Below are positions 10,771 to 64,000 of a stretch of DNA of 64,000 nt, one piece after another. The position numbers were made by a program, and so were the translations under genes. Where the stretch lies: contig CAVDBL010000004.1 in assembly GCA_963607345.1 (NCBI GenBank), positions 73,627 to 137,626 on the forward strand, given 5' to 3'. Under the pieces are notes generated by a model that saw only the letters and a list, made by a program, of their open reading frames with translations, made no database searches and was not told where the DNA came from. Source of the DNA: Bifidobacteriaceae bacterium (GTDB lineage Bacteria; Bacteroidota; Bacteroidia; Bacteroidales; Marinilabiliaceae). Each line of letters starts with the position of its first letter. The first letter of the stretch is position 1.

Positions 10771-10777
10771 ATTACAA

Positions 10778-18958: not shown

Positions 18959-19021
18959 CATCTAAGCTGCCTCTCCGAGGTGGCTTTTTTTGTAAACAAC
19001 AGCATCCCTATTTTTCCCATC

Positions 19022-24138: not shown

Positions 24139-24210
24139 GGCCGATTCGTCTAACGGTTAGGACATCAGATTCTCAATCTGGCAATAAGAGTTCGATTCTC
24201 TTATCGGCTA
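24139..24210 (+). tRNA. tRNA-Glu (anticodon CUC), second identical copy
   Basis: The 72-nt sequence is identical to 18887-18958. Confidence 0.9.
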
Positions 24211-24216
24211 CCACTC

Positions 24217-47550: not shown

Positions 47551-47847
47551 CTTTTTTGTTAGTTCGTTTATCTTGGTAGTTGTCGCCCATGGGGTGGAGG
47601 GGTGAGCCTCACAGCCACGTGGGCATGATTTTTTATTACGTCGCAAAGATAAATTCTTCGAGCCATACTCTGAAATTTTTTATTGGAAGCCCTCTTGCGA
47701 GTGACGTAAAAATATCTAATTTAGCGTCTATAAAATAAGCCCCAGTAAATAGCTGAATTACAGTAAGTTGCAAAATTTGCTTTTGAGCTTTATTGGCGTT
47801 TTTTGTTCTGATTTTCGGTATAAAATCCCCGATTTCATACCCCGAAA

Positions 47848-49071
47848 ATGCAGACCTTTTCTACAGAAATCAAGTTGAGTTTCCTCTTGAGGAACACCAA
47901 GTCAACAAGTCCAACAGTTATTTATGCTTATTTAAGATTCAGAGGCAAGTTTAAAAAGTTTCCGACTGGAGTTAAGGTGTTACCTAAACACTGGAACAGG
48001 GACGCTCAATTTGCGGTCACAGGGGGTAAAATAACGGCTTTAGACAAGAGCGCCAATGTAAAGTGCAATGAAGTTTTAGAGTTGATTAGAAGGCGTTTCA
48101 AGGAGGTCGTAGAGGAGGTTGAGGGTAACGATATTCTTGACAAGGTTTACGGTCTCTTGACTGGTAAAGAAGACTGTAGCCTGCTTGACGCTTTAAACGA
48201 GGTTGTCAAGGATAAAGGCGCAATGTATCGTTTAGCTGTTGAGTGGTTAAGCAGGTACTTAAAGGAGAATCCTATTAACGTAAAAGAGCTTAATAAGATT
48301 TATCTTGAAGGTTTTAAGGAGTGGTTTTTGAGGAGCGGCAAACAGGCTATTTACATGAAGACTTTATGCTCCTGTTTAAAAACCTCATTCAAGGAGGCTA
48401 ATCTAAAAGGGCTTATAGACGACGATACATACAGCAGAATAGCCTTTTATAAATTCAACATACAGGACAAGGCGAACAGGGTTAAACCGTTCCTTTACGA
48501 CAATGAAGTAATACAGCTGTACAACGTAACAACAGAAACGGAGGACGAACGTACTGTTGTAGACCTCTTTATTCTTGAATGTACATTAGGTCAACGTGTT
48601 GGCGATACAGGGCGAATAGACGAATGTGTCAAGAAGGTAGGCGACAAGTGGATTCTGGAGCTTGTTCAGCAGAAGACGAAGAAAAGGGTCGTTTGTGATG
48701 TTCTTTTCAAGCTGCCAATAGAGATACTGGAGCGCAACAGGTTTAACATTCCCGAAATAGACATAAGCCGCTACAATAGGCTTATTAAGAAATTAGCTCA
48801 ACGAGCTGGACTGAACAGGCTTTTTGAGGTTGAGAAGCACAGCGCCACGACAACGGTAGAGAAGAAACCTTTATACTCAATAATATCAAGTCATGTAGGC
48901 AGGCATACGTTTGACGCTTTATTAAGGATGCGAGGTTACACCCCAGCTCAAATAACTAAATACAGCGGTCATTCAGAAAAAGAGGTGTTAAGCTATACGG
49001 CTGCTTTTTACGAGGACCGTGATATAGCGTATTATGAGGCTTTAAAAGTCAAGCTTGAAATGATAAAATAA
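47848..49071 (+). CDS. Tyrosine-type site-specific integrase (phage integrase family)
   Basis: Catalytic-domain residues LGQRVGD (Arg), HVGRHTFDALL (H-x-x-R) and YSGHSEKEVLSYT (His/Tyr). 407 aa with no in-frame TAG. Stop is TAA. Confidence 0.9.
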   Translation: MQTFSTEIKLSFLLRNTKSTSPTVIYAYLRFRGKFKKFPTGVKVLPKHWNRDAQFAVTGGKITALDKSANVKCNEVLELIRRRFKEVVEEVEGNDILDKVYGLLTGKEDCSLLDALNEVVKDKGAMYRLAVEWLSRYLKENPINVKELNKIYLEGFKEWFLRSGKQAIYMKTLCSCLKTSFKEANLKGLIDDDTYSRIAFYKFNIQDKANRVKPFLYDNEVIQLYNVTTETEDERTVVDLFILECTLGQRVGDTGRIDECVKKVGDKWILELVQQKTKKRVVCDVLFKLPIEILERNRFNIPEIDISRYNRLIKKLAQRAGLNRLFEVEKHSATTTVEKKPLYSIISSHVGRHTFDALLRMRGYTPAQITKYSGHSEKEVLSYTAAFYEDRDIAYYEALKVKLEMIK

Positions 49072-49077
49072 GGGATT

Positions 49078-49173
49078 AAAAAATCCACTGAGGCATTACT
49101 ATTAAGTATTCAGTAAACTGAATACTATATAAAGGTTCGCCGCCTTGCAGGCTGCTTTACCAGGACGTTTAAC
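49078..49173 (+). repeat. Imperfect direct repeat, copy 1, upstream of the suppressor tRNA
   Basis: Shares AAAAAATCCACTGA, CAT(T/A)ACTA, TATATAAAGGT and GACGTT(T/C)AAC in the same order as 49339-49420. Contains the hairpin GTATTCAG taaa CTGAATAC. Confidence 0.6.
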
Positions 49174-49221
49174 ATTTATTACTTTATAAAGAATAATACA
49201 ACAGGTAGTATTACTAAAGAA

Positions 49222-49293
49222 TCTCCCATGGTGTAAAGGCAAGCACACCGCTCTCTAAAAGCGAAGGTTTCAGTTCGAATCTGAATAGGAGGA
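49222..49293 (+). tRNA. Suppressor tRNA, anticodon CUA (reads UAG); amino-acid identity probably Gln
   Basis: 72-nt cloverleaf. Acceptor TCTCCCA/TAGGAGG (U1.G72 wobble and one C6.A67 mismatch). U8. D-arm GTGT-AAAGGCAA-GCAC. Anticodon stem CCGCT/AGCGA (4 bp plus a terminal mismatch). Loop CTCTAAA with CTA at 49255-49257. 4-nt variable loop. T-arm TTCAG-TTCGAAT-CTGAA. Discriminator A. Confidence 0.8.
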
Positions 49294-49338
49294 CTATTAA
49301 TATGTAAAGTGTTGATTTATAATAGAATATAATGCAAG

Positions 49339-49420
49339 AAAAAATCCACTGATACATAACTACTAAATATAATACTACGTATTATATATATAAAGGTAGA
49401 CCGTCCTACAGACGTTCAAC
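49339..49420 (+). repeat. Imperfect direct repeat, copy 2, downstream of the suppressor tRNA
   Basis: See 49078-49173; same ordered sequence blocks. Confidence 0.6.
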
Positions 49421-49526
49421 CAAGAATCAAAAATTTTCTGTATATATAGTGAAAGGGAATTGTGAAGAGACAAATAATAAAGAACTGAATATATTAACGC
49501 AAACGTATTTTTTCATATTTAAGTGG

Positions 49527-49552
49527 GGTGTTACGAAACACCTTGCTTTTTT
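49527..49552 (+). terminator. Candidate intrinsic terminator closing the tRNA/repeat region
   Basis: GGTGTT acga AACACC followed by TTGCTTTTTT. Confidence 0.5.
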
Positions 49553-49591
49553 ATGAAAATTCTTTATTATTTTTCTGCATTTTCTTTTGGA

Positions 49592-49611
49592 ATATTCTTG
49601 AAAAAGAATAT
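49592..49611. promoter_or_regulatory. Perfect 8-bp inverted repeat (operator-like) upstream of the HTH gene
   Basis: ATATTCTT gaaa AAGAATAT, 34 nt upstream of the ATG at 49645. Confidence 0.4.
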
Positions 49612-49644
49612 ATTTATAATATAATAATTAAACAACATAACGTT

Positions 49645-50463
49645 ATGAAAAAATACGTTTGTATAAACAAGAACATATTAGGGTTAAACCTTAACCAAGT
49701 ACGAATCTACTTCACAATGAAGAAGTGGACGAATAAGCACGGTATTTGTGATTTAACCCAGCATCAAATAGCAGAAAGAAGTGGTGTGCCTTATGATACT
49801 GTAATTGACAATATGACTAAAGAGTTTTACGCAGCCGCCAATTGCAGGGTTAAGAAGGTACACGTTGATTCTTATATATTCCGTAACATTTATCATTTTA
49901 CCGAGAAGAAGTTTGTGTTAATTAAAGAGGACTTCTTAAAGGTGAACGCTGACAAAAAGCTTAAAGCACTTGTTATTCTGCTCAAGCTCCTTTGTTTTAA
50001 AAATTCCAACAAGTTGGCTTATAATAAGGCTCAACTTTGCGAATTGCTTAATATGTCAAGACCTACTCTTAACAAGTACCTTAAAGCAGCTATTGAGGCT
50101 GGACTTATTAAGTATAATAAGAACTGTATTGAAATTACTTGTGCTGGCGTAACTGTCAGTGCAGTAAATTTCAACAAGTTAAGCGACGGTGATAAGGCTT
50201 ATGCTGTTATTAGTAATTATTGTGAGGCACGTGGCGTTAAGGCTCCACGTTACAACAAAAGACTGGTCAACGAGCTTAACCTTGCTTGGAATGAAGGTAA
50301 AGACAATAATGTAAATTATGCTGTTGTCAATATTATTAAGAGGCTCAACCGCTGCAACATTAAAGTTGGCAAATCATATAGTCTTGCTTATTTTCTCAAG
50401 GTTCTGCTTAACACTAAACTTGACATTAGGCGCAACGCAACTGTTTATATGACAATGAATTAA
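49645..50463 (+). CDS. Putative DNA-binding protein with two HTH/winged-helix segments (replication initiator or regulator)
   Basis: LTQHQIAERSGVPYDTVIDNM and NKAQLCELLNMSRPTLNKYLKAAIEAGLI look like HTH units. No in-frame TAG. Stop is TAA. The ATG at 49645 is used rather than the listed 49528. Confidence 0.55.
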   Translation: MKKYVCINKNILGLNLNQVRIYFTMKKWTNKHGICDLTQHQIAERSGVPYDTVIDNMTKEFYAAANCRVKKVHVDSYIFRNIYHFTEKKFVLIKEDFLKVNADKKLKALVILLKLLCFKNSNKLAYNKAQLCELLNMSRPTLNKYLKAAIEAGLIKYNKNCIEITCAGVTVSAVNFNKLSDGDKAYAVISNYCEARGVKAPRYNKRLVNELNLAWNEGKDNNVNYAVVNIIKRLNRCNIKVGKSYSLAYFLKVLLNTKLDIRRNATVYMTMN

Positions 50464-50473
50464 TATTACAAGT

Positions 50474-50719
50474 ATGAACGAAGAGGAATTATTAAAGCAA
50501 GCAATGAGCGTCCCTGAAGAAAAAGCGAATAAATTAACGACGATACTTAATAATACACGTCGTAGCAGAAGGGATTCAGAATCTCTTATTGAGGAGTTAA
50601 TAGAGAAAAGAAAACGAGTAGCCGAAAACAGGATTAACTTCAGCAGCTTAACGGAGGAGTGCAGACGTATAAATAAAATACTTGATAAAAATAAAAAATA
50701 TGATATAGAATTTTCTTGA
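50474..50719 (+). CDS. Small charged hypothetical protein
   Basis: 81-aa ORF with no in-frame TAG. Stop is TGA. Confidence 0.45.
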   Translation: MNEEELLKQAMSVPEEKANKLTTILNNTRRSRRDSESLIEELIEKRKRVAENRINFSSLTEECRRINKILDKNKKYDIEFS

Positions 50720-50816
50720 TAAGCTTGAAAAATATTTAGAAAAAGCTTATTATTATAGAGCGGAAATAGCGACAACATTTTTAACAGCTGTAATACTGTA
50801 CATGATATTCGGATAA
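50700..50816 (+). CDS. Possible 38-aa membrane peptide (needs TAG read-through at 50706)
   Basis: MI[TAG]NFLDKLEKYLEKAYYYRAEIATTFLTAVILYMIFG, stop TAA. Short, so uncertain. Confidence 0.3.
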
Positions 50817-50833
50817 GAATAAAAAAAACAATT

Positions 50834-51079
50834 ATGACAACACAAGAACAAATTAATAAAATAACTGAAGAGCAAAATAAAATATAGAATGCTATATTAA
50901 AGCTGCAAAAAAATACTGAAAAGCTTCAGAATAATACGTAGAAATTAGAGAAGAGTATTCAAGAGACCAAACTTCAACAAGAACAGTTAATGAAAAACAC
51001 TTACAGGTTAAGTTAGCGTTTAGAGGAATTGTTTTTTGAAATAGAGAAATTTAAATAGCAGGTAGGCTACACTTCATAA
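50834..51079 (+). CDS. Gln-rich coiled-coil protein, 81 codons with 4 in-frame TAG
   Basis: MTTQEQINKITEEQNKI*NAILKLQKNTEKLQNNT*KLEKSIQETKLQQEQLMKNTYRLS*RLEELFFEIEKFK*QVGYTS. TAGs at 50885, 50939, 51014 and 51056. Stop is TAA. Confidence 0.55.
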
Positions 51080-51135
51080 TTCATGTCTATATTCAGCTTT
51101 AATTAGCTGGGTATAGACTTTATATGTTTATTTAT

Positions 51136-51324
51136 ATGCAATAGAAAACACAATTATTTTGCGCTATATTTTTAATAGTAGTTGGCGCAATATTACTTAT
51201 CAGCGGCTTTATAGTTCCACCTGTAGGCATTATAGATTCAAGCGTCCTTGTAGCATTTGGCGAGATATTGACTTTTGTAGGTTCGCTTTTTGGAATAGAT
51301 TATCATTATAGATATAAAAAATAA
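51136..51324 (+). CDS. Small two-TM membrane protein (1 in-frame TAG)
   Basis: MQ*KTQLFCAIFLIVVGAILLISGFIVPPVGIIDSSVLVAFGEILTFVGSLFGIDYHYRYKK. TAG at 51142. An alternative in-frame ATG is at 51124. Stop is TAA. Confidence 0.45.
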
Positions 51325-51401
51325 TGTTATTTATTTTGTTTTATTAATTAGAATATTTATATTTATAATGTAAGAGAACAAAAGCTCTTGTATTATTAAT
51401 T

Positions 51402-51833
51402 ATGAAGTGCAATTTAATAGCAGAAAAGGCTTCACGCAACAGACTTGATTAGATGTTGGGATATGAAGCAGGCAAAGGTCCTATAGTCTGGGACGAAATA
51501 AAAACAGAAGAAGACATATATAATCATTACGACGGAGTTTACGGCGATTACCTTGTAGAGCTTAAACAGTTGAGTTATAAAGGTAAAGGCTTAATGGTAG
51601 ACAAATAGAAGATAAATTGGTTACAGGAGGCTGTAAAAGAGTTGAAGAAAAACGATGCTTTAGTTATTTGGACTATAGAAGGGACTAAAGATATTTATGC
51701 AGTATCAGTTAAATAGCTTGATAAGTATATGAAGAACGGTACAGCTTGGATTCAATATTTGTCAACGGACAACGGTTATAAACCTGTAGTCTTTATTAAT
51801 TTTGAAAAAGCTTGTTATAGGGAGGGAATATAA
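51402..51833 (+). CDS. Putative VRR-NUC / PD-(D/E)xK-like nuclease (3 in-frame TAG)
   Basis: ...DGVYGDYLVELKQLSYKGKGLMVDK*KINWLQEAV... has the D...ExK motif and then a Q..W-type motif whose Q is the TAG at 51606. The other TAGs are at 51450 and 51714. Stop is TAA. Family is from memory. Confidence 0.5.
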
Positions 51834-51835
51834 TT

Positions 51836-52051
51836 ATGAGACTGGACGCAAGGTATTACACATATACTGAACAATAGAGGCTGGAGCTTACAGATTTTTG
51901 TAAAGCCCACGGAATTAAGACGATTAACCACCTAACAGAATACCTGTTAGATTCAATATTAAACGGACATTATGTTATTAAACATGGAAAAGAGCTGTTA
52001 CGACCAGATAAAAAGAGAATAGGGAATAGTGGAGAAGGCTGTAAGGAATGA
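51836..52051 (+). CDS. Hypothetical protein (1 in-frame TAG)
   Basis: MRLDARYYTYTEQ*RLELTDFCKAHGIKTINHLTEYLLDSILNGHYVIKHGKELL... TAG at 51875. Stop is TGA. Confidence 0.4.
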
Positions 52052-52391
52052 CGCTGTATTTACGCTGTATGAGCGTTTTAAAAGACTTCTTCCAAACTCA
52101 AATCATGAACTATTGAGCGATACGTTATTGAAGTTGACTGTTACTTATGATCCCAACAGGGATTTTATAGAGCAGTTCAAGGAGACTTGGGATTAGTTGG
52201 CTCAATGTTTTTAGAGGTCTAATTATTACTCGAAAGGTTATCACGTCTCATTGGAGGATATACCGAATCCTGAAGAGGAGGAGCGGAACGCGTATGATAT
52301 TATTAATGATAAGGAGTTAATAAAAGATGCCGTGGTTGAAACAGCTGCAAAGGCGACCAAAAGCCGAAAGCGAAGAGAGAAAAAAGCGTAA
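51972..52391 (+). CDS. Hypothetical protein with basic C-terminus (3 in-frame TAG)
   Basis: Open only if the TAGs at 52020, 52194 and 52212 are decoded: ...FTLYERFKRLLPNSNHELLSDTLLKLTVTYDPNRDFIEQFKETWD*LAQCF*RSNYY...KSRKRREKKA. Stop is TAA. The start is uncertain (ATG 51972/51984 or GTG 52029). Confidence 0.42.
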
Positions 52392-52719
52392 AGAGATTTA
52401 TAATACAGAACGTTGGCGCAAATTGAGGGGCGGCTATTTCATGTAGCACCCTTTATGCGAACTCTGTTATTAGAAGGGTATTATTAGAGAAGCGACGGAC
52501 GTGCATCATGTCATTTCACCGTTCAGCAGTGAACAAGGGAAACAAAACCCTTTACTTTATGCTTATGACGCTGACAACTTGATAAGCTTATGTAAAGAAT
52601 GTCATTCAGAATTGCACGGAAACAAACAAGAAGAATCATTATACGATATTTATTATGAACGAAAAATTAAGCAAACAACAATTACTGAAGAAGATACAGG
52701 ACGTGACGAAATGCAGTGA
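52327..52719 (+). CDS. HNH endonuclease (terminase-associated type), 2 in-frame TAG
   Basis: ...YNTERWRKLRGGYFM*HPLCELCY*KGIIREATDVHHVISP...NLISLCKECHSELHG has the classic phage HNH layout. TAGs at 52444 and 52471. Stop is TGA. Confidence 0.85.
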
Positions 52720-53053
52720 TACGACAACAGAATATGTATCACTTGTTATAGACGGTTTGGAGCAGCAGGGAAAACTTGACGCTGTAGATTAGGGGGCTTT
52801 AATACTATTGGCTAATTCTTATAATTTACAGCTTAAAGCAGTAGAGGAGCTTAACAAGTCAACCTTGCTGGTAATGAACGGAAACACGCCAATGAAGAAT
52901 CCGCTTGTGCAGATAATAGTATCTTGTCAAGGTTTATGCGTAAGAATAATGCAGGATTTTGGTTTAACTGCACGTAGTCGAAAATACCTTAACAAGGGAG
53001 AAGAGAAAAAGGAAGTTGAAGAGAGCGCACTTGATTCATTTTTAAAGAGTTAA
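52655..53053 (+). CDS. terS: Terminase small subunit (P27-family-like), 1 in-frame TAG
   Basis: MNEKLSKQQLLKKIQ...LDAVD*GALILLANSYNLQLKAVEELNK...NPLVQIIVSCQGLCVRIMQDFGLTARSRKYL. TAG at 52790. Stop is TAA. Confidence 0.78.
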
Positions 53054-53057
53054 CATT

Positions 53058-53642
53058 ATGAAAGAGTATCTTAAATACGCTTAGGATACTGTTAGTAGTG
53101 AAAAAGCAGGCAACCTTATAAAGTTATCATGCAGCAGGTTTCTTAATGATTTAAGAAGAGAGGATTTAGAGTTTAGGGAAAATGAAGTAGACCGCTGCAT
53201 AAACTTTATAGGGTTGTTCAAGCATTATACTGGTTCACATTCTGGAAAACAGTTCAAGCTTGAACCTTGGCAATAGTTTATAGCAGCCAACATTGTAGGG
53301 TTCTATTGGAAAGGGACAAACAGGAGGAGGTTTACTAATAGCTATATAGAGGTTGCTAGAAAAGCTGGCAAGAGCTAGCTGGCAGCAGCCTTATGCTTAT
53401 ACTTCTTAATTGCGGACAAGGAGGACGGTGCTGAAGTCCTTTTGGCGGCAAACAGTAAAGATTAGGCTAAAATAGCTTTTGAGATGTGCAGCGTTTTCGC
53501 CAAACAGCTTGACAAGACAGGTAAAAAGCTGATTTGTTACAGGGCTGATATACTTTTCAACACTACTAACAGCAAGCTTAAATGTTTAGCTGCTGACGAT
53601 TCTAAACTTGACGGCTTTAACGCTTCATTTGGTCTTATTGAT
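53058..53642 (+). CDS. terL: Terminase large subunit, exon 1 (195 codons, 4 in-frame TAG)
   Basis: MKEYLKYA*DTV...FKLEPWQ*FIAANIVGFYW...VARKAGKS*LAAALCLYFLIADKEDGAEVLLAANSKD*AKIAFEMC...FNASFGLID carries the Walker A motif and the start of Walker B. TAGs at 53082, 53274, 53376 and 53463. Confidence 0.88.
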
Positions 53643-54591
53643 AAATATTTGTCAATGTAAAAGTACTTTAATTACGGGAAACTCCTAAAGTTCGCAATAC
53701 CAACTTAATAAAGTGATTTATTAAGGGCTAAACTAATCATTTAGAGAAGGTAACAAGTTGCGAAATTGGAAAATCCGTAACCAAGCAACTTTTTTAAAAG
53801 TTGAAGGTTCAACGACTACCGAAAGCACATCTTTTAGGTGGAAGCAAGTAGGGTACAATGTAAGCTAATGACATTGGAAATGGGTGCAGTCTACATACGT
53901 GTATTTCATAATACTTTAATAATAAGCGAGATGAAAATATATGTATTAAAAGATCCTCGGAATGATTAGATTAGGTATGTAGGGGTGACAACGCAAGCTT
54001 TAAATCAAAGATTATCACAACATATAAACGCCGCTAAAAAGAACGAAATGAGACACGTTTGTAAGTGGATAAAAGTTTTGTTAAAGCTTGAATTACGACC
54101 TATTATTGAGCAAATAGATGAAGTTGATAATGAGCAGTGGTAGGAATGGGAGGTTTATTATATCTCATATTATCGGAAAATTGGGTGTGAACTTACAAAC
54201 ATTGATAAAGGAGGAAACGGTGTAGTTTCTGCTGAAAAGAGGTCAAAGGATTCAATGTTAAGAAGCTCCGAAAAACACAAGAAACCTGTTTATCAACTTA
54301 ATAGGAACCTTGAAATAATAAAAGAGTGGAAATCTGTAACAGATGCCTGTAATGAGTTGGGGTATAAGCAAGCCAATATCGCCAACGCCTTACATAAAAA
54401 AATAGGAGCTTATGGGTATTTATGGTGCAGGGTTTCTGAATTTGCGAACTATAAACCTAAAAGTAATTATCTAAATCCAAGAGGATGTAAGTAGATTAAG
54501 ATATAGTCTTAACTCTTGAGAAATCAAGAGCAGTTTGTGGGAAAATACCCACCGCTGTACTATATTTTGCGAATATAGTAAAAAATAATTG
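53643..54591 (+). mobile_element. Group I self-splicing intron (phage IA-like core) interrupting terL and carrying a homing endonuclease gene
   Basis: P1: exon end ATTGAT (53637-53642) pairs with the intron sequence GTCAAT (53651-53656), with a U.G pair at the splice site. The last intron nucleotide is G (54591). Joining the exons restores GAT|GAA TTT CAC = LIDEFH. Core-like elements are AACGACTA (53811), AAGTAGGGT (53846) and the hairpin CAATGT...ACATTG (53856/53871). Confidence 0.82.
53931..54512 (+). CDS. Intron-encoded GIY-YIG homing endonuclease with C-terminal HTH-like DNA-binding module (4 TAG read as sense)
   Basis: MKIYVLKDPRND*IRYVGVTTQALNQRLSQHI...EQW*EWEVYYISYYRKIGCELTNIDKGGNG, then ...VYQLNRNLEIIKEWKSVTDACNELGYKQANIANALHKKIGAYGYLW. 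TAGs at 53967, 54141, 54492 and 54504. Stop is TAA at 54510. Confidence 0.82.
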
Positions 54592-55626
54592 GAATTTCAC
54601 TCGGCTAAAAACAGTAAAGTACGTGATGTTATCAAGAGTTCAATGGGTATGAGGTCAAGACCACATTTATGTACGATAACTACAGCAGGATTTAATAAGA
54701 ACAGTCCTTGTTACGAGTTAAGGACAACTTGTTGTGAAGTGCTTAAAGGTATAAAGCAGGACGATTCTACTTTTGCCGCTATATATTCACTTGACGAGGG
54801 TGACGACTGGAAGAATCCTGAAGTTTGGGCAAAATCGAACCCTAATTTAGGTGTTACAGTATTTCCAGAATACTTAAAAGAGCAGGTTAATTTAGCTATT
54901 AATAATCCAAGCGAGGAGGTTGGGGTAAAGACTAAAAACCTTAATATGTGGTGTGATGTTTCCGACGTTTGGATTAATGATATATCACTGGTTCAAAACT
55001 CAAAACAACTTGATTTAAGCGTATTTAAAAACCGACAAGTTTATGTGGGCGTGGATTTAGCCGCAACAGGAGATTTGACCGCCGTATCATATATGACTGA
55101 AATTGACAATGTAAAATACTTTTATGTAAAGTACTATTTGCCAAGCTCTTGTCTGGACGGTAAAAAGAACTCTTATAATTACAGAAATTGGAAGAATAGC
55201 GGCTACTTGACAGTTACGGAGGGTAATGTTACAGACTACGACTACATTACTAAAGATATGCTGGAGGTTGCCCAAAATGCTCAAATATGCAATGTTGCTT
55301 ATGACAATTGGAACAGTACGCAATGGGCTATAGACGCTGTTTCAAAAGGTCTGCCGCTAAATCCTTATAGTCAGTCTATTGGCAATTTTAACAGACCTAC
55401 AAAAGAATTTGAGCGGCTTCTATACGGTGGAGGAATAGTAATAGATTCAAATCCGATTAACAGGTTCTGCTTTAAAAACGTCGTGTTAAAAACAGACCAT
55501 AACGGAAACAGCAAACCGAGTAAAGAGAGTTATAATAATAAAATAGACGGTGTTATAGCGATGCTTATGAGTTTAGGAGGTTATCTGCAAACACCAAAAT
55601 ATAATAATCAAATTTTTTCTGTATAA
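54592..55626 (+). CDS. terL: Terminase large subunit, exon 2 (nuclease half)
   Basis: EFHSAKNSKVRDVIKSSMGMRSRPHLCTITTAGFNKNSPCYE...VGVDLAATGDLTAV...IDGVIAML, Terminase_1-like. No TAG. Stop is TAA. Confidence 0.88.
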   Translation, partial: EFHSAKNSKVRDVIKSSMGMRSRPHLCTITTAGFNKNSPCYELRTTCCEVLKGIKQDDSTFAAIYSLDEGDDWKNPEVWAKSNPNLGVTVFPEYLKEQVNLAINNPSEEVGVKTKNLNMWCDVSDVWINDISLVQNSKQLDLSVFKNRQVYVGVDLAATGDLTAVSYMTEIDNVKYFYVKYYLPSSCLDGKKNSYNYRNWKNSGYLTVTEGNVTDYDYITKDMLEVAQNAQICNVAYDNWNSTQWAIDAVSKGLPLNPYSQSIGNFNRPTKEFERLLYGGGIVIDSNPINRFCFKNVVLKTDHNGNSKPSKESYNNKIDGVIAMLMSLGGYLQTPKYNNQIFSV

Positions 55627-55639
55627 TAGAAAAGAAGAT

Positions 55640-56866
55640 ATGAAATTTATCGATTTTTTTAAACGAAATAGAAGTCCTTAGGAAACTGAAAAACGTTCAT
55701 TGTTTGGTGACGCATTGACTTATGCGGGTTCACCAAACACTATTAGTGAGTATAAGTCGATGCTGTTGAGTACAGTTTACCGTTGTGTAGACTTGATAAG
55801 CAACAGTGTTGCCTCGCTGCCTTTTGAGCCTTATGAGGTTTCTTGTGACGGCTATAGAAAGAAGCTGCACGACCACCCTATATATCATGTACTTAATTAT
55901 GAGCCAAATGAGCGAATGACAAGGTTTATATTCATGAAAGCACTTGTTACGAGCATGATATTGAGGGGTAACGGTTATGCTTATATAGAGCGTGATAAAC
56001 TTGGTAATGTCATAAAGCTTGATTACCTTGATTCTGACAGGGTTAGCCCTATTATAGACTACACGAGCAACACTATTAAGTATTATGTAGTATCTGGTTA
56101 CAAGGTACCACGAGTGGAGCCTATAAACATGATACACTTGATAAACTTTACTTATGACGGCATAACTGGAGTATCAACATTAAAGAGCGCAAGAGGTTGT
56201 CTTTCAGCTGCTTATAATGCAGAACAGACTGCTGCTGGATTCTTTACAGGAGGTTGTAATGTTGGCGGCATACTTAAAGTTCAAGGAATGCTTAATGAAG
56301 TGCAGAAACAACAGCTAAAGTCAAGTTGGCAACAGGCGTTCAGTCCTGCTACAGGTCAACCAAATGGTGTAGCTGTTTTGGAGGGAAATATGGACTTCAG
56401 TCCTATAACGGTGAATCCTGCTGACGCTCAACTGCTTGAGAGCAGGCAATATAACGTTATAGATATTTGCCGTTTTTTTGGAGTTAACCCTACAAAAGTA
56501 TTTGACTTGACAAAAGCCTCTTATTCAACGGTGGAGGCTGAAAACCTGCAATTCTTGAACGATACGCTTCAACCGATAATAGAGAAAATAGAGCAGGAGT
56601 TTCAACGGAAACTATTTAAACCAAGTGAAAAAGCGCATACAATAGTACGATTCGATACCAGCTCAATGTTGAGGACTGATAAGAACAGTCAAGCTTCATA
56701 TTACTCAACTTTATTCAATATGGGTGCAATGAGCATCAACGAAATACGAAAAGCACTTGATTTAGAGCCTATTGAAGGTGGTGATACTCATTATGTGCAG
56801 GTTAACATGGGTGCTACAAACAATAACGAAATAAATGAAGAAGGAAATAAGGAATTACAGGAGTGA
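55640..56866 (+). CDS. Portal protein, HK97 family (1 in-frame TAG)
   Basis: MKFIDFFKRNRSP*ETEKRSLFGDALTY...STVYRCVDLISNSVASLPFEPY...NGYAYIERD... TAG at 55679. Stop is TGA. Confidence 0.9.
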
Positions 56867-57374
56867 AACCACCTTTAACGAAAGGCGTGTAACTGGTTAC
56901 GCTGTTGTGTTTAATAGTTACTCGCATGATTTAGGCGGTTTTAAGGAGATAATAGAGCCTACTGCCTTGGACGGGATAATAGAGATTTCAGACGTGCTAT
57001 GCTTAATGAACCACGACGAGGACAGGGGTGTTTTAGCACGCTCAAAATACGGAAAAGGGACGTTGGAGTTGACAATAGACGAACACGGCTTAAAATACAG
57101 TTTTGAGGCTCCACATACAGCTTTAGGAGACGAGCTTTTAGAGGGGCTTAACAGGGGCGATATTACGACCAGCTCTTTTGCCTTTACCGTCGCTGAAGAG
57201 CAGTGGGATAAAGACGAGACTGGAGTTGATATTAGAATCATAAAGAAAATAGACAGACTTTACGACGTTTCGCCAGTATATCAGGAGGCTTATCCTGATA
57301 CGGACGTTGCGCAACGGAATCACAAGCAACATTTGGACAATTACTTTTTAAAACTCAGAAAATCAATAATTTAA
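56835..57374 (+). CDS. Prohead maturation protease, HK97 family
   Basis: ...RVTGYAVVFNSYSHDLGGFKEIIEPTALDG...CLMNHDEDRGVLARS...TSSFAF... No TAG. Stop is TAA. Confidence 0.87.
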   Translation: MKKEIRNYRSETTFNERRVTGYAVVFNSYSHDLGGFKEIIEPTALDGIIEISDVLCLMNHDEDRGVLARSKYGKGTLELTIDEHGLKYSFEAPHTALGDELLEGLNRGDITTSSFAFTVAEEQWDKDETGVDIRIIKKIDRLYDVSPVYQEAYPDTDVAQRNHKQHLDNYFLKLRKSII

Positions 57375-57378
57375 CATT

Positions 57379-58656
57379 ATGAAGAACATAAATTCACTTC
57401 AAATTTTGGACAAGAAATTAAATTTACAGAAGAGGGCTACGGCTCTTTTCGATAAGGCTGAAGAGGAAGGACGTATGCTTACTGAAGACGAGCAAAAGCT
57501 TTACGAGGAAATTAAGGCTCAAATCGCTGAACTTGAAAAGCAGAAGAGTGAACTTGAGGCAAAACTGAACGAAGAAGCTTCCGACGAGGAAGAAGATAAA
57601 GAAGAGGCTTCCGACGACGAGGAAGACGACGAGGATAAAATTGAACAAAACAAACGAAACAAAAGGAATATGAAATTTAGTCTTTTAAAAGCTATTAATA
57701 GCGTAGTAAACAACCGTTCTCTTGATGAGGACGCTCAAAAAGTCATTACCCGTGGCGTAAACCAGATGCGTAATTCTGGACTTTCTTATGGTGGTCAAAT
57801 ATAGATCCCTATTGAGAACCGCGCGACGGACGGCACCTTGACTGGAGGCAATTTAAAGTCCACGACAACAAACGGAGGCAAGGAAGCTGTACCTACTGAT
57901 ACTCTTGATATTTTGACCGCCCTTCGCAACAAGCTTGTTTTAGTTCAAGCTGGTGCTACTTGCATGAACGGACTTGTAGGCAATGTTGAGATACCTGTTT
58001 ATTCTGGTTCCACTGTAGGTTGGGAAGGTGAAGTAGACGCTGCTACAAACGGCACTGGTACAATGAGTTCTGTAGAGCTTTCTCCAAAACGCATCACCGC
58101 TTATGTTGACGTTTCCAAGCAGTTCCTTATCCAGACTTCCGACGCTGCTGAAGCAATGTTGAAGAATGATATTGTTGAGGCTATATCCAATAAGCTTGAG
58201 GAAACTATTTTAGGTACTGAAGCTGGTTCTAACAAGAAACCTGCTGGTATACTCAACGGTGTAACTGCTGATACTACTGCTGTTAAATATGCTGATATTG
58301 TCTCTATGGAGGCAAGTCTTGAGGCTGCAAACATTGACGGTGATTACAAGGTAATCGTCTCCCCTACAGCAAAGGCTAAACTCAAGACCACTTCTGTTGA
58401 CGCTGGCTCTGGACGTTTCATTATGGAATCCAACGAGGTTGACGGCTATGAGGCTTTAACCACTAATGCAGTTCCTGCAAACGGTGTTATTTTCGGCAAT
58501 TTCAACGAGCTTGTCATTGGTCAGTGGGGTGCTTTTGACGTAACTGTTGACCCTTATACTCAAGCTGCGAACGGAAAGGTTAGACTTGTCGTAAATGCTT
58601 ATTTTGACGCTAAGCTTCGTCGTTCTGGAGCAGTTGTCGGTAAAATACTTGCTTAA
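57379..58656 (+). CDS. Major capsid protein, HK97 family, with N-terminal coiled-coil/acidic delta domain (1 in-frame TAG)
   Basis: Two listed ORFs (57379-57804 and 57838-58656) share a frame and are joined by the TAG at 57802 (GGQI*IPIENRA). The C-terminal part (...LRNKLVLVQAGATCMNGLVGNVEIPVYS...YFDAKLRR) is typical of HK97 MCPs. Stop is TAA. Confidence 0.9.
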
Positions 58657-58709
58657 TTAATCTGGAGGGGCTGGAGTAGGCTTCAGCCCTTCTTTTTATA
58701 CTTAATATC

Positions 58710-59006
58710 ATGGTGACTTTAGAAGAGGTAAAAACACATTTAAATATTGATTCCGACTATACAGCGGACGATACTTATTTAAATTGGCTTATAGAAGTTG
58801 CCAGCGAATCTATACTAAATCAGCTTGACTGGAGTGAAACTGAAGACGCTGAAGTAGAATACCCTAAAGCGGTGAATCACGCAATATTGATGCGAATAGC
58901 AGAACTTTATAACAACAGGGAGGAGACTACTTCAAACAGTGTCAATTAGAGGACTAAAGCGGCTGATTTCCTTGTGAGCCAGCATAGACGTTATACAATA
59001 GCATAA
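58710..59006 (+). CDS. Head-tail connector (gp6-like) protein (1 in-frame TAG)
   Basis: MVTLEEVKTHLNIDSDYTADDTYLNWLIEVASESI...AILMRIAELYNNRE...VN*RTKAADFLVSQHRRYTIA. TAG at 58947. Stop is TAA. Confidence 0.68.
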
Positions 59007-59008
59007 TT

Positions 59009-59392
59009 ATGGAAGCAGGGCGTTTAGACAGTCTTATAAAGCTTTACAGGCTTGATAAGGACACGGTTGACAAATACGGGCGTAAAGACAGGGTGTATAG
59101 GCTTGTTGGAGAAAAAAGATGCAACATGAGAATTGAGAGCGGCAACCCTGTTGTCATACAGGACGCTTTAACATATTCATATACGGCTTCATTCTGGTTT
59201 AGGCGTTTTGTTGAAATTGGGGTTTATGATTTAATAGTTTACAGCCCTAATAAAGAGAATGACACCAAAAGCCTTTAGGAGGTTTTTCTGGTTGATACTG
59301 TTATCTACAACAGACAGGAGGACCGAAAAGAGGTGAAGGCGCACAGAATAGACTGGGAGGCTGTTAAATTCAAAATAGACAATGGGCAATAA
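59009..59392 (+). CDS. Head closure / head-tail adaptor protein (1 in-frame TAG)
   Basis: MEAGRLDSLIKLYRL...KRCNMRIESGNP...TKSL*EVFLVDTVIYNRQEDRKEVKAHRI... TAG at 59276. Assigned from position and size. Stop is TAA. Confidence 0.6.
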
Positions 59393-59789
59393 ATTTGAGT
59401 ATAAAAAGCTCAAGCGTAAACTCCAAAAACTCTCAAGGGACTACTTTAAACCTGTTAGAAAATACCTTAATCAAGCAGGAAAGACAATATCAAGCGCAGC
59501 AAAAGCGAACTTTAAAGGAACAGGAATAAGCAAAGAACTTGCAAAAGGGATTTCGCACAAGGTTTGGAAAACAGGTACTGGTGTTTATATAGGCTTAAAA
59601 AAAGACTTTAGGTTGACATTTTTTGAAAAAGGAACCAAGGAGCGTTATCATAAGGATAAGCACTATACAGGTCAAATCCAGCCTTATTTCTTCTTTAAGA
59701 GTGCAGTGGACAATAACCTTGAGGCTGCTCAAAAAATCATACAGGACGGAGTAAACGAACAAATCAATGAGCTTAATAAAGACAATTAA
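59382..59789 (+). CDS. HK97 gp10-like tail-attachment/neck protein
   Basis: 135 aa; ...AAKANFKGTGISKELAKGISHKVWKTG...YFFFKSAVDNN... Assigned from position in the module. No TAG. Confidence 0.55.
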   Translation: MGNKFEYKKLKRKLQKLSRDYFKPVRKYLNQAGKTISSAAKANFKGTGISKELAKGISHKVWKTGTGVYIGLKKDFRLTFFEKGTKERYHKDKHYTGQIQPYFFFKSAVDNNLEAAQKIIQDGVNEQINELNKDN

Positions 59790-60198
59790 ACTGACACCAG
59801 AAATCTCTATATACTTGAAGAAGGTATGTGAAAATGCAAATTTAACATATTACCCTTTAATAGGCGATGCTGACGCTGAAGCCCCTTATGTTGTATATTA
59901 GAGACTTTCACAAGAATTAGATAACTCCAAGGACGGAGAATTTGGCATGAACGCTTCATTTATAGTGAAGTTTGTCGCTGCCACTTATTCGGAATCCCTT
60001 GAAATGTTGAAGAAGTTCGCTGAAAACCTTTTCATTGAGGACGGAATAGAGACGACAGAAGAGGACGGCACGACCACTGAAGCTCCTTTTGAGGAGTTCA
60101 CTGTTGTTGACGTATCTATTACGGATAACGGTGAAGAGTGGTCCGAGAACTACTTTATCAATACAATAACAGTAAACATAACTTATAATTTAAAATAA
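59767..60198 (+). CDS. Tail completion / neck protein candidate (1 in-frame TAG)
   Basis: MSLIKTIKLTPEISIYLK...YYPLIGDADAEAPYVVY*RLSQELD...; the PYVVY motif recalls DUF3168-type proteins. TAG at 59899. Stop is TAA. Confidence 0.5.
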
Positions 60199-60199
60199 A

Positions 60200-60661
60200 A
60201 TGAACAGCACTTATAAAGGCAAAAACCTTCAAGTCCTTTTAAATAATAAATCTATTGCATTGGCAACCAGTCACAGTCTTGATATCAGCATATCTACTGT
60301 TGATATTACAACTAAAGACGATAACGGAATGTTCACCAATAGCGCAGCGTAGAGCGTTTCGTGGACAATGAGTTCTGATAACCTTGTCAGCTACGGAACC
60401 GACGGCGCAAGCACTGTAGACGTTATTGACATGGCACTTGTAGGAACCAAGGTTACACTTATTTTTGGACTGGTAACACCACTTGACGCTTCAGTACCAA
60501 CTGGAGGGTTCACGAAGAACAGCACTGCTGAAGATGCTTTTGCTTATACTGGCGATGCTATTATCACAAGTGTTTCTGTTTCAGCTGCTAACGGTGAACG
60601 TGCTACCTACAGCATATCGTTCCAAGGTTGCGGAGAACTCAAAAAGGTTTCAAATAGCTGA
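60200..60661 (+). CDS. Major tail protein (TP901-1 / Phage_tail_2-like), 1 in-frame TAG
   Basis: MNSTYKGKNLQVLLNNKSIALATSHSLDISISTVDITTKDDNGMFTNSAA*SVSWTMSSDNLV...ANGERATYSISFQGCGEL. TAG at 60350. Stop is TGA. Confidence 0.75.
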
Positions 60662-60683
60662 TAATTAATTATTTAGACATGAA

Positions 60684-60719
60684 GAGTGGTTGGTGGTCTT
60701 CACCACCACTCTATTTTTA
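60684..60719 (+). terminator. Intrinsic terminator after the major tail gene
   Basis: GAGTGGT(T)GG ... CCACCACTC hairpin followed by TATTTTTAT. Confidence 0.55.
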
Positions 60720-60768
60720 TTTGTATTTGTCAAGTCTTATCGTTATATTAGAAGAAAACAATAAGACT

Positions 60769-61026
60769 ATGAATATCATATCAAAACTCATAAAGTATAT
60801 AAAGGACAGAAAAGCAGCCAAGAAAGAGGCTGAATTTCAAAGAATGTTTAAAGCGGAACTTGAACGCCAAAAAGAAACAGAAGAGATTAGGAAGTACCTA
60901 AAAGACAATAACATAGATATAACTATAAATTATGTTAGTGAGAAACCTGTTAAAGAAGAGAAATCTATTTATGAGGAGTGCTGGGAATATCTTGGCATAT
61001 ATGGAATGAAAAACCCATTTGATTAA
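60769..61026 (+). CDS. Small charged hypothetical protein
   Basis: MNIISKLIKYIKDRKAAKKEAEF... The ATG at 60769 is used because the listed start (60679) lies inside the terminator hairpin. Confidence 0.4.
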   Translation: MNIISKLIKYIKDRKAAKKEAEFQRMFKAELERQKETEEIRKYLKDNNIDITINYVSEKPVKEEKSIYEECWEYLGIYGMKNPFD

Positions 61027-61032
61027 GCAATT

Positions 61033-61338
61033 ATGAAAATATCGATTAAAAATTAGGAATTAGCTGTAAAGCATACTATTAGAACGACAATGACTTGGGA
61101 GGAGCTTAAAGGAGGAACTTTTAAGCTTGAGAATACTTCTGATGCTATTAAGTATATGTGGATATGTACAAAGTCTTATAATGATACAGATATTACGTTT
61201 GAGGATTTTTTGGACGGAATAACAAAACGAAATTTGGAGGACTTTTTGGAAGAGATAACGAATAAGGAGCAGCCAAAAAAAAAGAGCTTTCTGAGTAGAC
61301 TGTTTCAACGGCTGAAGTGTTTGCTTGGTTCACGTTGA
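61033..61338 (+). CDS. Tail assembly chaperone (gpG-like), 1 in-frame TAG
   Basis: MKISIKN*ELAVKHTIRTTMTWEELKGGTFKLENTSDAIKYMW... It lies immediately upstream of the tape measure gene. TAG at 61054. An A9 run lies near the 3' end. Stop is TGA. Confidence 0.65.
61275..61283 (+). promoter_or_regulatory. Slippery A9 run: candidate programmed -1 ribosomal frameshift site (G to G-T)
   Basis: CC AAA AAA AAG in the zero frame contains the A_AAA_AAA heptamer. The -1 frame is open from 61266 to 61619 if TAG is decoded. Confidence 0.6.
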
Positions 61339-61619
61339 GTTTAGGGCTTGAACCAGAATATGTGTTAGACCGAATGACAAGACAAGAGGCGGCTGCTTTA
61401 ATGAAGTATTCTTATTATAAGAATAAAGTAGACTGGGAGCGTACACGGTTTAACGCTTATTGTACAGTTCAGATTCAAAGTAAAAAGAGAATAAAACCTG
61501 AAGACTTAATAAAGTTCAACTGGGAAAAAGAATCAGAAGTGCATATACCAACAGACGAGGAAATTAAGCAAGTAGCAGAATGGGCTAAACAAATTCGTAA
61601 AAAATAGGAAAATGAGTGA
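61281..61619 (+). CDS. gpT-like extension of the tail assembly chaperone, reached by -1 frameshift (2 TAG in this frame)
   Basis: The -1 frame reads KKKELSE*TVSTAEVFAWFTLSLGLEPEYVLDRMTRQEAAALMKY...AKQIRKK*ENE. TAGs at 61296 and 61605. Stop is TGA at 61617. Confidence 0.55.
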
Positions 61620-63768
61620 TATAAAAATAAATCTTGAACTTGATTCAAGTAAGTTCTCTAAATAGTTTGAATCTTTTGGAAAAACGTTTGAAAATGAGTT
61701 TTCCGCTTGTCAAAAGTCTATTACGGCTACAGAGGACGAGATTAAACAGTTGACAGAAGAATTAAGCAACTATACAAAAGAGAGCGAGAATTATAAGGAA
61801 ATAGCCAAGTGGATTCAAGACGATAACAAGAAGCTTGAGGAGTAGAAAAAGTAGTTCACATCACTACAAAATTCAATAGGTGCTTACGCTCAAAAAATTG
61901 AGGAGGCATCAAAAAAACAGACAGCTTTAACTAACAAGCTTAGCAAGCTTGACGTAAATTCTGACGAGTACAAAAAAGTTGTCAAGGAAATAAAGAATTG
62001 TCAGGAGGAGCAGGAAAAGTTTAGGGGTAAAATAACAAAAGCTACAAAATCTTTAGGTGAACAAGTACCAGTCGTAAAGAGGGTTGGAAAGGCTATTACC
62101 AGTGCAGCTGGAATATTCAACCAAATATCGTGGGCTATACAGCAATTACAAGATTTATTTGAGGAGCTGTATGAGAGTTGTGAGCCTTTTGCTGAAATTG
62201 TAGACTATATTTCTGGAGCTGTTGCTGCTTGGTTTGCAATGGTAAAGAAATATATTGGAGCGTTAGTTAAGCTGTTTACAGGGGATTTTTCTGGGGCTAT
62301 TAACGACTTCAAGGAAATTGTTACAGGCGTAGTTGATACTGTAGTGCGAGTAGCAAAAGCTACAGCATTATTAAAGAAACAAATACGTGAATTGGATAAG
62401 GCTTTACTTGACTTTTCAAATCAAACTTCCGTCTTGACCACTAATATTGAGGCTTATAAGAAAATCATAGAAGACAGCACGACGAGTGTTCAACAGAAAA
62501 AAGACGCTTTAACGGCTTTAAAGAACACATATGAGTAGCTTAATTCAGTTTTAAAGGATCAGAGAAAACAACAACAGGATATAATAAAGTCCACTATTAA
62601 TGCGAAGTTAGCGACGACGAAATTAAACGACGTTACTGCTGAGCAAACACAGTCGTTTGTTGACCTCATGAGGACAGGGCAAACCTTATCCGAATCAATG
62701 AAGGAGGCTTTTGGTGAAGATGTGTACAAACAGCTCAGTCAGTCTGAACTAAAGGATATTAATGAACAATTCAATAAAATAAAAGAAACCGATAAACAAA
62801 TCATTGATTCCAACAAGCAGATAAGAGAAAGTGAAAAATCAGTACAAAAAGCTATTAAAGAGGCTGCTGATAACAGTTACAAGCTTAAAGACAGTTATAA
62901 AGAATCCAGTGAATACCTTGAGGCTCAAAAGACTAAACTTGAAGAAGCGAAGAAGCGAGTTGAACTTTATTCTGAAGAGTGGAAACAAATTGACAAACAG
63001 ATAAAAGACATAGACAACATTCTTAAATACGGCAAAAACACAATAGAGTTTAAAGTCAAGTTGAATATGTCTGATTAGGAGTTTACTGATTTTGAGAAGT
63101 ATGTAAAAGACAACCTAAACAACACTCTTGAGGGGCTTAATACGGAGCAGATACAGGAGTTTTATGCTTAGTGGCTTGAAAGTCTTAGAATTGTCAATGA
63201 TACAAATAACGACTTGAACGAATCTTTAATAACAGGAACTTCTTTAATTTAGAGAGAATCTAAAGGAACTGAAGATATAGCTCAAAACAAACAACAGGAG
63301 CAGGAGGCGCAACAGAATTTAGTATCAGCTTATAATGATACCGCTTCAGCTATTGGTGATGTTACAGGCGAAACGGAATTAGCGGCTCAAGCGCAACAGG
63401 CAATGAACCTTGCTTTACAGATCCAGGCAATGGCGCAAGCTATTTCAACAGCCGCTGAAGGAGATCCTTATACAGTGGCTTTACGTATAGCCGCCGCTTC
63501 CGCTGCTGTTGTTGCTGGCATGGCAAAATTCACCAAATTCGCTACAGGTGGTATTGTTGAGGGTCAATATCAGACTGGTGATATGAACCTTGTCGCAGTC
63601 AACGGAGGTGAAATGATACTTAACAAGAATCAGCAGGGCAATTTGTTCAGACTTATCCAAAACGGTACAATAGGCGGTCAAGGTGGAGATGTTCAGTTTA
63701 GAATTTCTGGTAAAGACCTTGTCGGTACACTTAACAACTACAATAAATACAACTCATTAACAAAATGA
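61612..63768 (+). CDS. Tail tape measure protein (718 aa, 7 in-frame TAG)
   Basis: Four listed ORF fragments (62239-, 62668-, 63403- and the unlisted N-terminus) share one frame and are separated only by TAG (61663, 61843, 61852, 62536, 63076, 63169, 63250). Long coiled-coil sequence, a hydrophobic AAASAAVVAGMAKF segment and a C-terminal GGEMILNKNQ motif. Stop is TGA. Confidence 0.85.
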
Positions 63769-64000
63769 CAACATACACAGGTTCATTCACGAACAGGAGC
63801 AATGATAAGTTTAGGCTGCAAATAAATTCCAGTTCTGGTAACGGTTCTAAAGAAATAACTATTACAGGGGTGACGATAAACAGCAACAGTGAAGCTACGA
63901 ACATTTACGCTCCTATTAGATATACCTCATTGGATTTCAGTATATTAACCGACGATATAGATATTTATAAAGGAGCTTTTCTTAACGCTACTGTAATACT
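63765..64000 (+). CDS. Next tail gene (distal tail protein position), 3' end outside the window
   Basis: The ATG overlaps the tape-measure stop (ATGA). MTTYTGSFTNRSNDKFRLQINSSSGNGSKEITITGV... stays open to the window edge. Confidence 0.45.
   Translation, partial: MTTYTGSFTNRSNDKFRLQINSSSGNGSKEITITGVTINSNSEATNIYAPIRYTSLDFSILTDDIDIYKGAFLNATVI

Follow-up and report, generated by a model that had tools for sequence, protein, structure and literature searches.

We analyzed a stretch of 64,000 nucleotides (nt) from contig CAVDBL010000004.1 (GenBank assembly GCA_963607345.1, positions 73,627 to 137,626 of the forward strand; hereafter the window), whose part from 47746 to the end is probably the left end, at least 16 kb, of a temperate prophage that is small and resembles a siphovirus. 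It lies in a gut-type Bacteroidales genome and uses genetic code 15, in which TAG is read as glutamine (Gln). The genes at the left edge of this prophage contain no in-frame TAG, and most of those that follow do. As judged from related genomes, this partition is a conserved trait of the phage group, not an accident of one genome. The reading that we favor, and hold to be reasonably probable, is that a 3-kb starter module compatible with the standard code is followed by a remainder that mostly depends on TAG suppression, with access to that remainder gated by a suppressor tRNA. Gating through tRNA expression is a hypothesis published earlier by Borges et al. (bioRxiv 10.1101/2021.08.26.457843; Nature Microbiology 2022), whose lysis-lysogeny model was invoked in an earlier note on this DNA, made from the sequence alone.

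The module begins with a tyrosine integrase gene (47848..49071, + strand; 407 codons, TAA stop), which is followed by a suppressor tRNA gene (49222..49294, +), a gene for a winged-helix DNA-binding protein (49645..50463, +; 272 codons from its ATG, TAA stop) and the open reading frame (ORF) orf81 (50474..50719, +; 81 codons, TGA stop), the last TAG-free gene of the module. None of the three ORFs contained an in-frame TAG, and the tRNA lies inside the TAG-free module, between the integrase and winged-helix genes, as the earlier note had stated. The integrase, with 10 Gln codons, matched Pfam Phage_int_SAM_5 at 29.5 bits (cutoff 22.3) and PHROG integrase families at E values of about 8e-9, over residues 125-393; the HxxR motif (HVGRHTF) was visible, and Pfam PF00589 was not reported for this protein. 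Among 5.8 billion proteins it had only four close homologues, each called full length under the standard code. The winged-helix protein (4 Gln codons; the mechanically called ORF begins upstream, at GTG 49528) matched the Pfam families HTH_Crp_2, HTH_24 and HTH_36 (HTH, helix-turn-helix). Its best matches, all weak, were to PHROG 186 (DnaD-like helicase loader, 1.6e-7) and PHROG 270 (replication initiation, 9e-5), and PDB profile matches to the winged HTH domains of DeoR and TubR were obtained at E values from 5e-4 to 3e-2. A homologue search returned one cluster only, 97% identical, and a single-sequence AlphaFold model was unusable (mean predicted local distance difference test score 35). 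The protein is thus best described as a candidate replication initiator or regulator, and resembles an initiator at least as much. A minus-strand ORF at 50374-50778 was rejected as a gene: it has a low-complexity translation, overlaps the conserved orf81 and looks like an antisense artefact.

The tRNA, called by ARAGORN with anticodon CTA, is of Gln type without an encoded CCA, and it scored 49.4 bits against the Rfam tRNA model (gathering score 29). Between the window and two related loci (L010 and L004, described below), compensatory changes were found in acceptor pair 7:66, the anticodon stem and the T stem, while the anticodon loop CUCUAAA was invariant. The closest annotated phage tRNA, and the only similar one in the annotated phage collection, was a RefSeq tRNA-Gln with a CTA anticodon from the crAss-like phage cr125_1 (NC_055900). 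It is 78% identical and shares U1 with a mismatched or wobble position 72, A73, a D arm of UGGUGUAAAGG..AGCAC and the loop CUCUAAA.

The 36 in-frame TAGs of the prophage are spread over 16 conserved genes, including those for the large and small terminase subunits (TerL, TerS), portal, major capsid protein (MCP) and HNH endonuclease. Reading through TAG restored full-length homologues; the joined TerL had 539 amino acids and was 96% identical to the homologue P0001. When 120 TerL homologues were aligned, two of the four window TAGs fell in columns with Gln in 119/120 and 90/120 sequences, and the other two fell in variable columns. Compared with the 89-93% identical locus L002, most window TAGs were TAG there too and exchanges were mainly with CAG or CAA; the reverse comparison agreed. 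By these alignments, TAG is read as Gln in the prophage. The host, in contrast, uses TAG as the stop of 6 of its 24 long ORFs (1-47745), indicating that it is on the standard code.

The first in-frame TAG lies at 50706, at codon 3 of a 39-codon ORF (50700..50816, +) that may encode a small membrane protein; this ORF has no family match, and its reality is uncertain. The first well-supported TAG-containing gene is orf81b (50834..51079, +), a coiled-coil gene with 4 TAGs in 81 codons. The boundary of about 50,700 given in the earlier note was therefore right, and its claim that everything downstream needs suppression holds for 16 of 20 genes, the protease, orf135 and orf85 genes carrying no TAG. 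TAG density was 2.1 per 100 codons in the small post-boundary and packaging genes, as against 0.5 in the late structural genes. According to this pattern, the divide runs between the recombinase, DNA-binding protein and tRNA on one side and everything else on the other, not between early and late genes. In 8 of the 16 genes of the window with TAG, the first TAG fell within the first 20 codons, including TerL codon 9, portal codon 14 and tape measure codon 18 (null expectation 3.7-4.7; P = 0.01-0.03, post hoc). The independent lineage L004 did not show this clustering (P = 0.26-0.39); a placement of TAGs that aborts translation early is thus only suggested by a post hoc pattern, and we do not claim it.

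Integrase homologues led to the loci L005, L006-L009 and L010/L011, of which the short contigs L008 and L009 were not scanned for tRNA. A CTA tRNA was found immediately 3′ of the integrase gene in all scanned loci of this set (L005, L006, L007, L010 and L011). L005 (GCA_963654305.1) is 98% identical to the window, and its contig breaks just 3′ of the tRNA. In the loci that extend far enough (L006, L007, L010 and L011), a winged-helix homologue then follows, with 0 TAG in L006, L007 and L010. The earlier note had said that the layout fits the proposed model; it does match Borges et al., and the order is kept in these loci and in L004. orf81 is conserved in L006 and L010, and its L010 homologue has a TAG 7 codons before the end. 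As a separate observation, the N-terminal ~60 codons of the L006 integrase (9838-11062) lie in a different frame from the remaining 353, and the split recurs in L007-L009; seen in five contigs, it reflects a frameshifted integrase or else an assembly error that recurs.

The most informative of the loci was L004, reached through a 69% identical TerL. There, a serine recombinase, a tRNA-CTA, an 87-codon ORF and a 267-codon winged-helix homologue follow one another in this order. The recombinase is not homologous to the tyrosine integrase of the window and occupies the same position, and the winged-helix homologue shares the motif SRPTLNKYLK with the window protein. The winged-helix homologues of L010 and L004 are 48% and 25% identical to that of the window, respectively, and both are TAG-free. 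In the L004 module, 24 CAA or CAG codons and one TAG were counted (TAG at 1/25 Gln positions), compared with TAG at 89/161 Gln positions (55%) in 17 downstream genes (Fisher P = 3.7e-7). The lone TAG lies six codons before the downstream TGA of the recombinase gene and may be a standard-code stop, which matches the observation of Borges et al. that apparent integrase TAGs fall in terminal extensions (10.1101/2021.08.26.457843). Window and L004 combined gave P = 4e-7, for lineages that are few and related. In a third recoded lineage, L094, genes for a methylase, a nuclease and other non-structural functions form a large block without TAG beside TAG-rich structural genes. A standard-code relative, L093 (TerL 62% identical), has no in-frame TAG, reads TAG as a stop and lacks a suppressor tRNA. 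No relatives were found in IMG/VR scans that used two tRNA patterns and the integrase and winged-helix proteins, and a degenerate tRNA pattern had no match in GTDB species genomes or JGI metagenomes.

Two imperfect copies of a direct repeat of about 100 nt lie on either side of the tRNA, copy A upstream (49078..49175, +) and copy B downstream (49339..49430, +). Copy A starts with a 14-nt box, AAAAAATCCACTGA, and copy B has the same box. The box was identical within a genome and different between genomes, being AAAAAATCCACTGA in the window and L006 and AAATATCACAAATA in L010 (repeat copies at 1341-1440 and 1620-1720). This pattern of concerted evolution suggests an operator-like or iteron-like element and points to putative protein-binding sites. 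RNAalifold on four repeat copies gave a weak consensus of 7 pairs (-5.9 kcal/mol) and no convincing common RNA fold; the repeat was therefore treated as a DNA element and not as a structured RNA. No clear counterpart of the tRNA-flanking repeat was seen in L004, in which the winged-helix gene is preceded by two perfect 18-nt direct repeats (AAAACGTAAAAAAAGGAA, at 3054 and 3078).

An insulator-like region (49500..49661, +) lies ahead of the winged-helix gene of the window. It contains an 18-nt perfect inverted repeat (49500-49517 and 49644-49661, 18/18 complementary), whose second arm lies over the winged-helix ATG, a conserved intrinsic-terminator hairpin (49521-49548) between the tRNA region and the winged-helix gene, in which L010 differs by a compensatory change, and a sigma-70-like promoter match (49598-49625); such matches are abundant in AT-rich DNA, and this one was not used for promoter assignment. 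The predicted RNA fold of the region closed the long-range helix, with a minimum free energy of -43.1 kcal/mol and z = -6.7. L004 (2985-3184) and L010 (1808-1955) share the layout of arm 1, terminator, AT-rich promoter-like stretch and arm 2 over the ribosome-binding site and ATG; a compensatory T>G / A>C change is present in L010, and the L004 sequences differ. This arrangement may block the translation of read-through transcripts or may form two operators for autoregulation. Conserved sequence blocks flank the tRNA, and the conserved terminator sets it apart from the winged-helix gene, so that it looks separately controlled.

In the reading that we favor, the starter module would comprise the recombinase, the winged-helix protein, the small ORF and the Gln-type suppressor tRNA (anticodon CUA), and unmodified host ribosomes with release factor 1 (RF1) would translate its proteins in full. 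The small post-boundary genes, and those for the HNH endonuclease, TerS, TerL, portal, capsid, tail tube and tape measure, would need the tRNA to compete with RF1. A regulated unit of its own would produce the tRNA, host enzymes would charge it with Gln, and packaging and virion proteins would be completed only once charged tRNA is present. As long as the tRNA is scarce, the in-frame TAGs would serve as a translational fail-safe on lytic functions. In this scheme, we infer when the tRNA is expressed, which enzyme charges it and whatever part it has in the choice between lysis and lysogeny.

Several results weigh against this reading, the first of which are statistical. Downstream of the module, 36 TAGs in 4031 codons amount to 0.89 per 100 codons, from which 6.8 would be expected in 760 codons (Poisson P = 0.001); the arithmetic of the earlier note (roughly one per 100 codons and about 7 expected) was thus sound. 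Its normalization was not, because TAG arises only at Gln positions and the module is Gln-poor, with 15 Gln codons in 760 (2.0%) as against 5.0% downstream. TAG makes up 17.8% of downstream Gln positions, which gives 2.7 expected in the module (P(0) = 0.053; Fisher P = 0.059). Furthermore, this share is heterogeneous, being 33% at 50.8-54.5 kb and 10.8% from TerL exon 2 onward, and at the latter, structural-gene rate, the zero count of the module had P = 0.18. When TAGs were permuted among Gln positions, the first TAG fell beyond codon 760 in 6% of permutations, and a TAG-free run of at least 760 codons arose somewhere in 19%. A comparably long TAG-free run, the second longest (714 codons, from portal codon 15 to MCP codon 141, protease included), sits in the structural genes, and TerL exon 2 (344 codons, 54592-55626) also lacks TAG, as the earlier note had remarked. 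Within the window taken by itself, chance could account for the TAG-free module (P = 0.05-0.19). The depletion test that the earlier note proposed therefore came close to a null result within the window, and it is L004 (P = 3.7e-7) that rescues the partition; the coordinates and the relatives bear out the boundary, and the within-window statistics had been overstated. Per-codon TAG expectations inflate significance, and such tests should be normalized to Gln codons and corrected for the post hoc choice of the stretch. Base composition was rejected as a cause, since out-of-frame TAGs were equally frequent in the module (28 per 760 codons) and downstream (138 per 4031).

Other contrary results concern lysogeny and control. 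No CI/Cro-type repressor or other lysogeny-maintenance gene was seen in the module, so that the integrase is the only gene that speaks for the label "lysogeny". The visible 16 kb (47746-64000) contain no divergent HTH_3-type repressor and no HTH_3 family above threshold, and the CI/Cro-like pair that accompanies the integrase in a lambda-type lysogeny module is absent from this visible part. The designation "lysogeny/early module" of the earlier note did not hold up, given the missing repressor, the replication-initiator and DnaD-like best matches of the winged-helix protein, weak as they are, and the peak of TAG density just past the boundary. No promoter could be assigned, the Bacteroidetes consensus TTTG-N-TAnnTTTG having 0 matches in the window. 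Finally, no terminator-like site was detected between the integrase gene and the tRNA, so that co-transcription is possible, which would couple the tRNA to integrase expression rather than oppose the two.

Part of this evidence would suit a bootstrap that is only a matter of timing and plays no part in lysogeny, an unlikely but serious alternative. In such a bootstrap, the module would be translated at once when the DNA enters or the prophage is induced, before the suppressor accumulates, the tRNA might be constitutive in lysogens, and silencing would come from ordinary transcriptional repression encoded elsewhere. The initiator and helicase-loader matches, the lack of a repressor in the module and the concentration of TAG right after the boundary, not in late genes, all agree with it, and amber suppressor strains of bacteria are viable. 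However, with a quarter of the long host ORFs ending in TAG, constitutive suppression would be costly; moreover, an integrase is a lysogeny function, and the conserved repeat elements that bracket the tRNA suggest regulation.

It is distinctly unlikely, in our estimate, that ancestry explains the partition, the recombinase module being a swappable cassette newly gained from standard-code elements in which TAGs have not yet accumulated. Non-homologous recombinases do occupy one position (tyrosine in the window, serine in L004), and the TerL family does include standard-code relatives such as L093, but the winged-helix gene has diverged along with the phage lineages and is nevertheless TAG-free in all of them, and its composition (GC 0.357) is in line with the rest of the prophage. 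The GC content at third codon positions of the integrase gene (0.458) is the top value among prophage genes, as a recent arrival might show, but it is equalled by the protease, orf127 and orf139 genes, and close integrase homologues occur only in the recoded group. Because the partition survives the swap to a non-homologous recombinase, we favor a functional reason over shared ancestry.

We regard as very doubtful a stronger version, in which the tRNA gene itself is the master lysis-lysogeny switch and replaces a classical repressor. The winged-helix protein would bind the 14-nt boxes and toggle the tRNA, silence would be mainly translational, and the terminator and the start-codon-sequestering helix would insulate the circuit. 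This version was considered because the visible prophage lacks the divergent CI-like repressor that L093 has. In L093 (329-4651), a tyrosine integrase at the left end is accompanied by an HTH_17 excisionase-like gene and a divergent HTH_3 repressor.

Chance, by which few glutamines and sparse TAG would leave these genes TAG-free with no selected partition, agrees with the within-window values given above (2.7 expected TAGs, the permutation results and the real 714-codon run) and is nonetheless highly improbable, given an L004 module essentially free of TAG beside downstream genes with TAG at 55% of Gln positions, modules likewise TAG-free in L006 and L010, and published family-level integrase tests (Garnet p = 5e-3, Topaz p = 1e-16).

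The reading of a tRNA-gated starter module places this locus beside several known systems, and it is a new instance of a published pattern, not a new phenomenon. Borges et al. described two groups of TAG-recoded prophages about 24 kb long, Garnet in Prevotella and Topaz in Oscillospiraceae, both in hosts with the standard code, and reported at the family level that their integrases avoid in-frame TAG, which is the source of the two integrase tests cited above (10.1101/2021.08.26.457843). Phages of the Garnet clade, whose membership is defined by TerL clade with at least 95% bootstrap support, have a mean length of 34 ± 5 kb, with an example prophage of 24.4 kb (10.1101/2021.08.26.457843). The prophage of the window is similar in being small and temperate in a standard-code Bacteroidetes host, in its suppressor tRNA, single gene direction and boundary marked by a GC change, in having TAG in most genes (16/20, compared with a Garnet mean of 71%), and in an integrase at the prophage edge among few TAG-free genes. 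It differs in that the Garnet site is bounded by the integrase and a host tRNA-Met, whereas no tRNA was present at the left prophage junction, the only one inside the window; the text of Borges et al. is also silent on the position of the tRNA and on a second conserved TAG-free gene, which in the window is the winged-helix gene. Topaz prophages likewise are recoded, about 24 kb long and equipped with a TAG-avoiding integrase, and the same partition hypothesis applies to them, but they belong to an unrelated phage clade in a Firmicute host.

The code-15 crAss-like phages, such as cr125_1, also read TAG as Gln and carry the similar tRNA described above; in contrast, they are large (~100 kb) and lack an integrase module. 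A metaproteomic validation of them is reported by Peters et al. 2022 (PMC9523058). In Jade phages, a standard-code "code change operon" precedes the recoded lysis genes (Fig. S6 of Borges et al.), and these phages similarly keep the code-changing machinery in standard code upstream of the dependent genes; however, Jade recodes TGA to Trp with machinery that includes TrpRS and RF1, and the operon stands beside a lysis cassette in large lytic phages. L093 shares the HK97-type head and tail gene order and the tyrosine integrase at the left end, and differs in its HTH_3 repressor and HTH_17 excisionase-like gene, neither of which is found in the visible recoded prophage. A later survey reported small recoded temperate phages of about 29 kb. 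Our literature search found no paper that tested the gating model experimentally in a prophage.

The locus leaves existing knowledge unchanged, and such novelty as there may be is modest. It may lie in the conserved placement of the tRNA between the recombinase gene and a second conserved TAG-free gene, in the persistence of this layout across a recombinase swap, and in the control elements that surround the tRNA and winged-helix genes. Recoded prophages in standard-code hosts are the clearest natural case of two codes in one cell. Here, a whole candidate switch of recombinase, tRNA, DNA-binding protein and control elements lies within 3 kb beside a mapped attL, and this compact locus would be a handy template for reporter and knock-out work if the host can be cultured.

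The host-prophage junction, attL, was placed at 47745..47746, because the match to L012, a related genome with no prophage at this site, ends at 47745 and that to L006, a related prophage in another host context, begins at 47747; the GC content falls near 47.7 kb from about 52% in the host to about 35% in the prophage. The visible prophage is at least 16.3 kb long. The window stops at 64000 within tail genes, and the lysis genes, attR and the right end are outside it. By similarity, the host is an uncultured Bacteroidales: its RecQ was 94% identical to that of L012 (CAVHUG010000007.1), with which 9.7 kb of host DNA shares 90% identity, and the next-best matches, at 50-58%, were to Marinilabiliaceae, Prevotella and other Bacteroidales. 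The title of the L012 record, "Pseudobutyrivibrio sp.", is probably a mislabel, because the remaining RecQ matches were all from Bacteroidota.

Every credible gene between 47746 and 64000 lies on the + strand, and functions downstream of the boundary were assigned from Pfam and PHROGs, together with Pfam labels on the near-identical loci L001-L003. After orf81b, a strong hairpin (51085-51118) precedes orf143 (51402..51833; 143 codons) and orf139 (51972..52391; 139 codons), each with 3 TAGs. By eye, these two resemble L004 ORFs at matching positions, with shared motifs and differently placed TAGs. Pfam and PHROG searches up to an E value of 1 gave nothing informative for orf143, orf139, orf81b or the 39-codon ORF. 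The packaging region comprises the HNH endonuclease gene (52327..52719; 130 codons, 2 TAGs), TerS (52655..53053; 132 codons, 1 TAG) and a terL gene split into exon 1 (53058..53642; 195 codons, 4 TAGs; Pfam TerL_ATPase) and the TAG-free exon 2 (54592..55626) by a group I intron (53643..54591). The intron gave partial matches to Rfam Intron_gpI, and its junction was set by comparison with the intron-less L001-L003; a U stands before the 5′ splice site and a G is the last intron base. It contains a GIY-YIG homing endonuclease gene (53931..54512; about 193 codons; Pfam GIY-YIG), and because this gene holds 4 in-frame TAGs, the mobile element is adapted to recoding. Different insertions were seen in the terL genes of L006 and L007.

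The structural genes follow in the order portal (55640..56866; 408 codons, 1 TAG), S78 protease (56835..57374; 179 codons, 0 TAG), HK97-type MCP (57379..58656; 425 codons, 1 TAG) and connector (58710..59006; 98 codons, 1 TAG). Next come the head-tail ORFs orf127, orf135 and orf143b (59009..60198; 127, 135 and 143 codons with 1, 0 and 1 TAG, respectively), the tail tube gene (60200..60661; 153 codons, 1 TAG), orf85, orf101 and orf100 (60769..61619; 85, 101 and 100 codons with 0, 1 and 1 TAG, respectively) and the tape measure gene (61612..63768; 718 codons, 7 TAGs). In the host part of the window, the GC content dips to about 44-46% at 25-28 kb, and two tRNA-Glu(CTC) genes (18887-18959 and 24139-24213) are identical across 73 shared nt.

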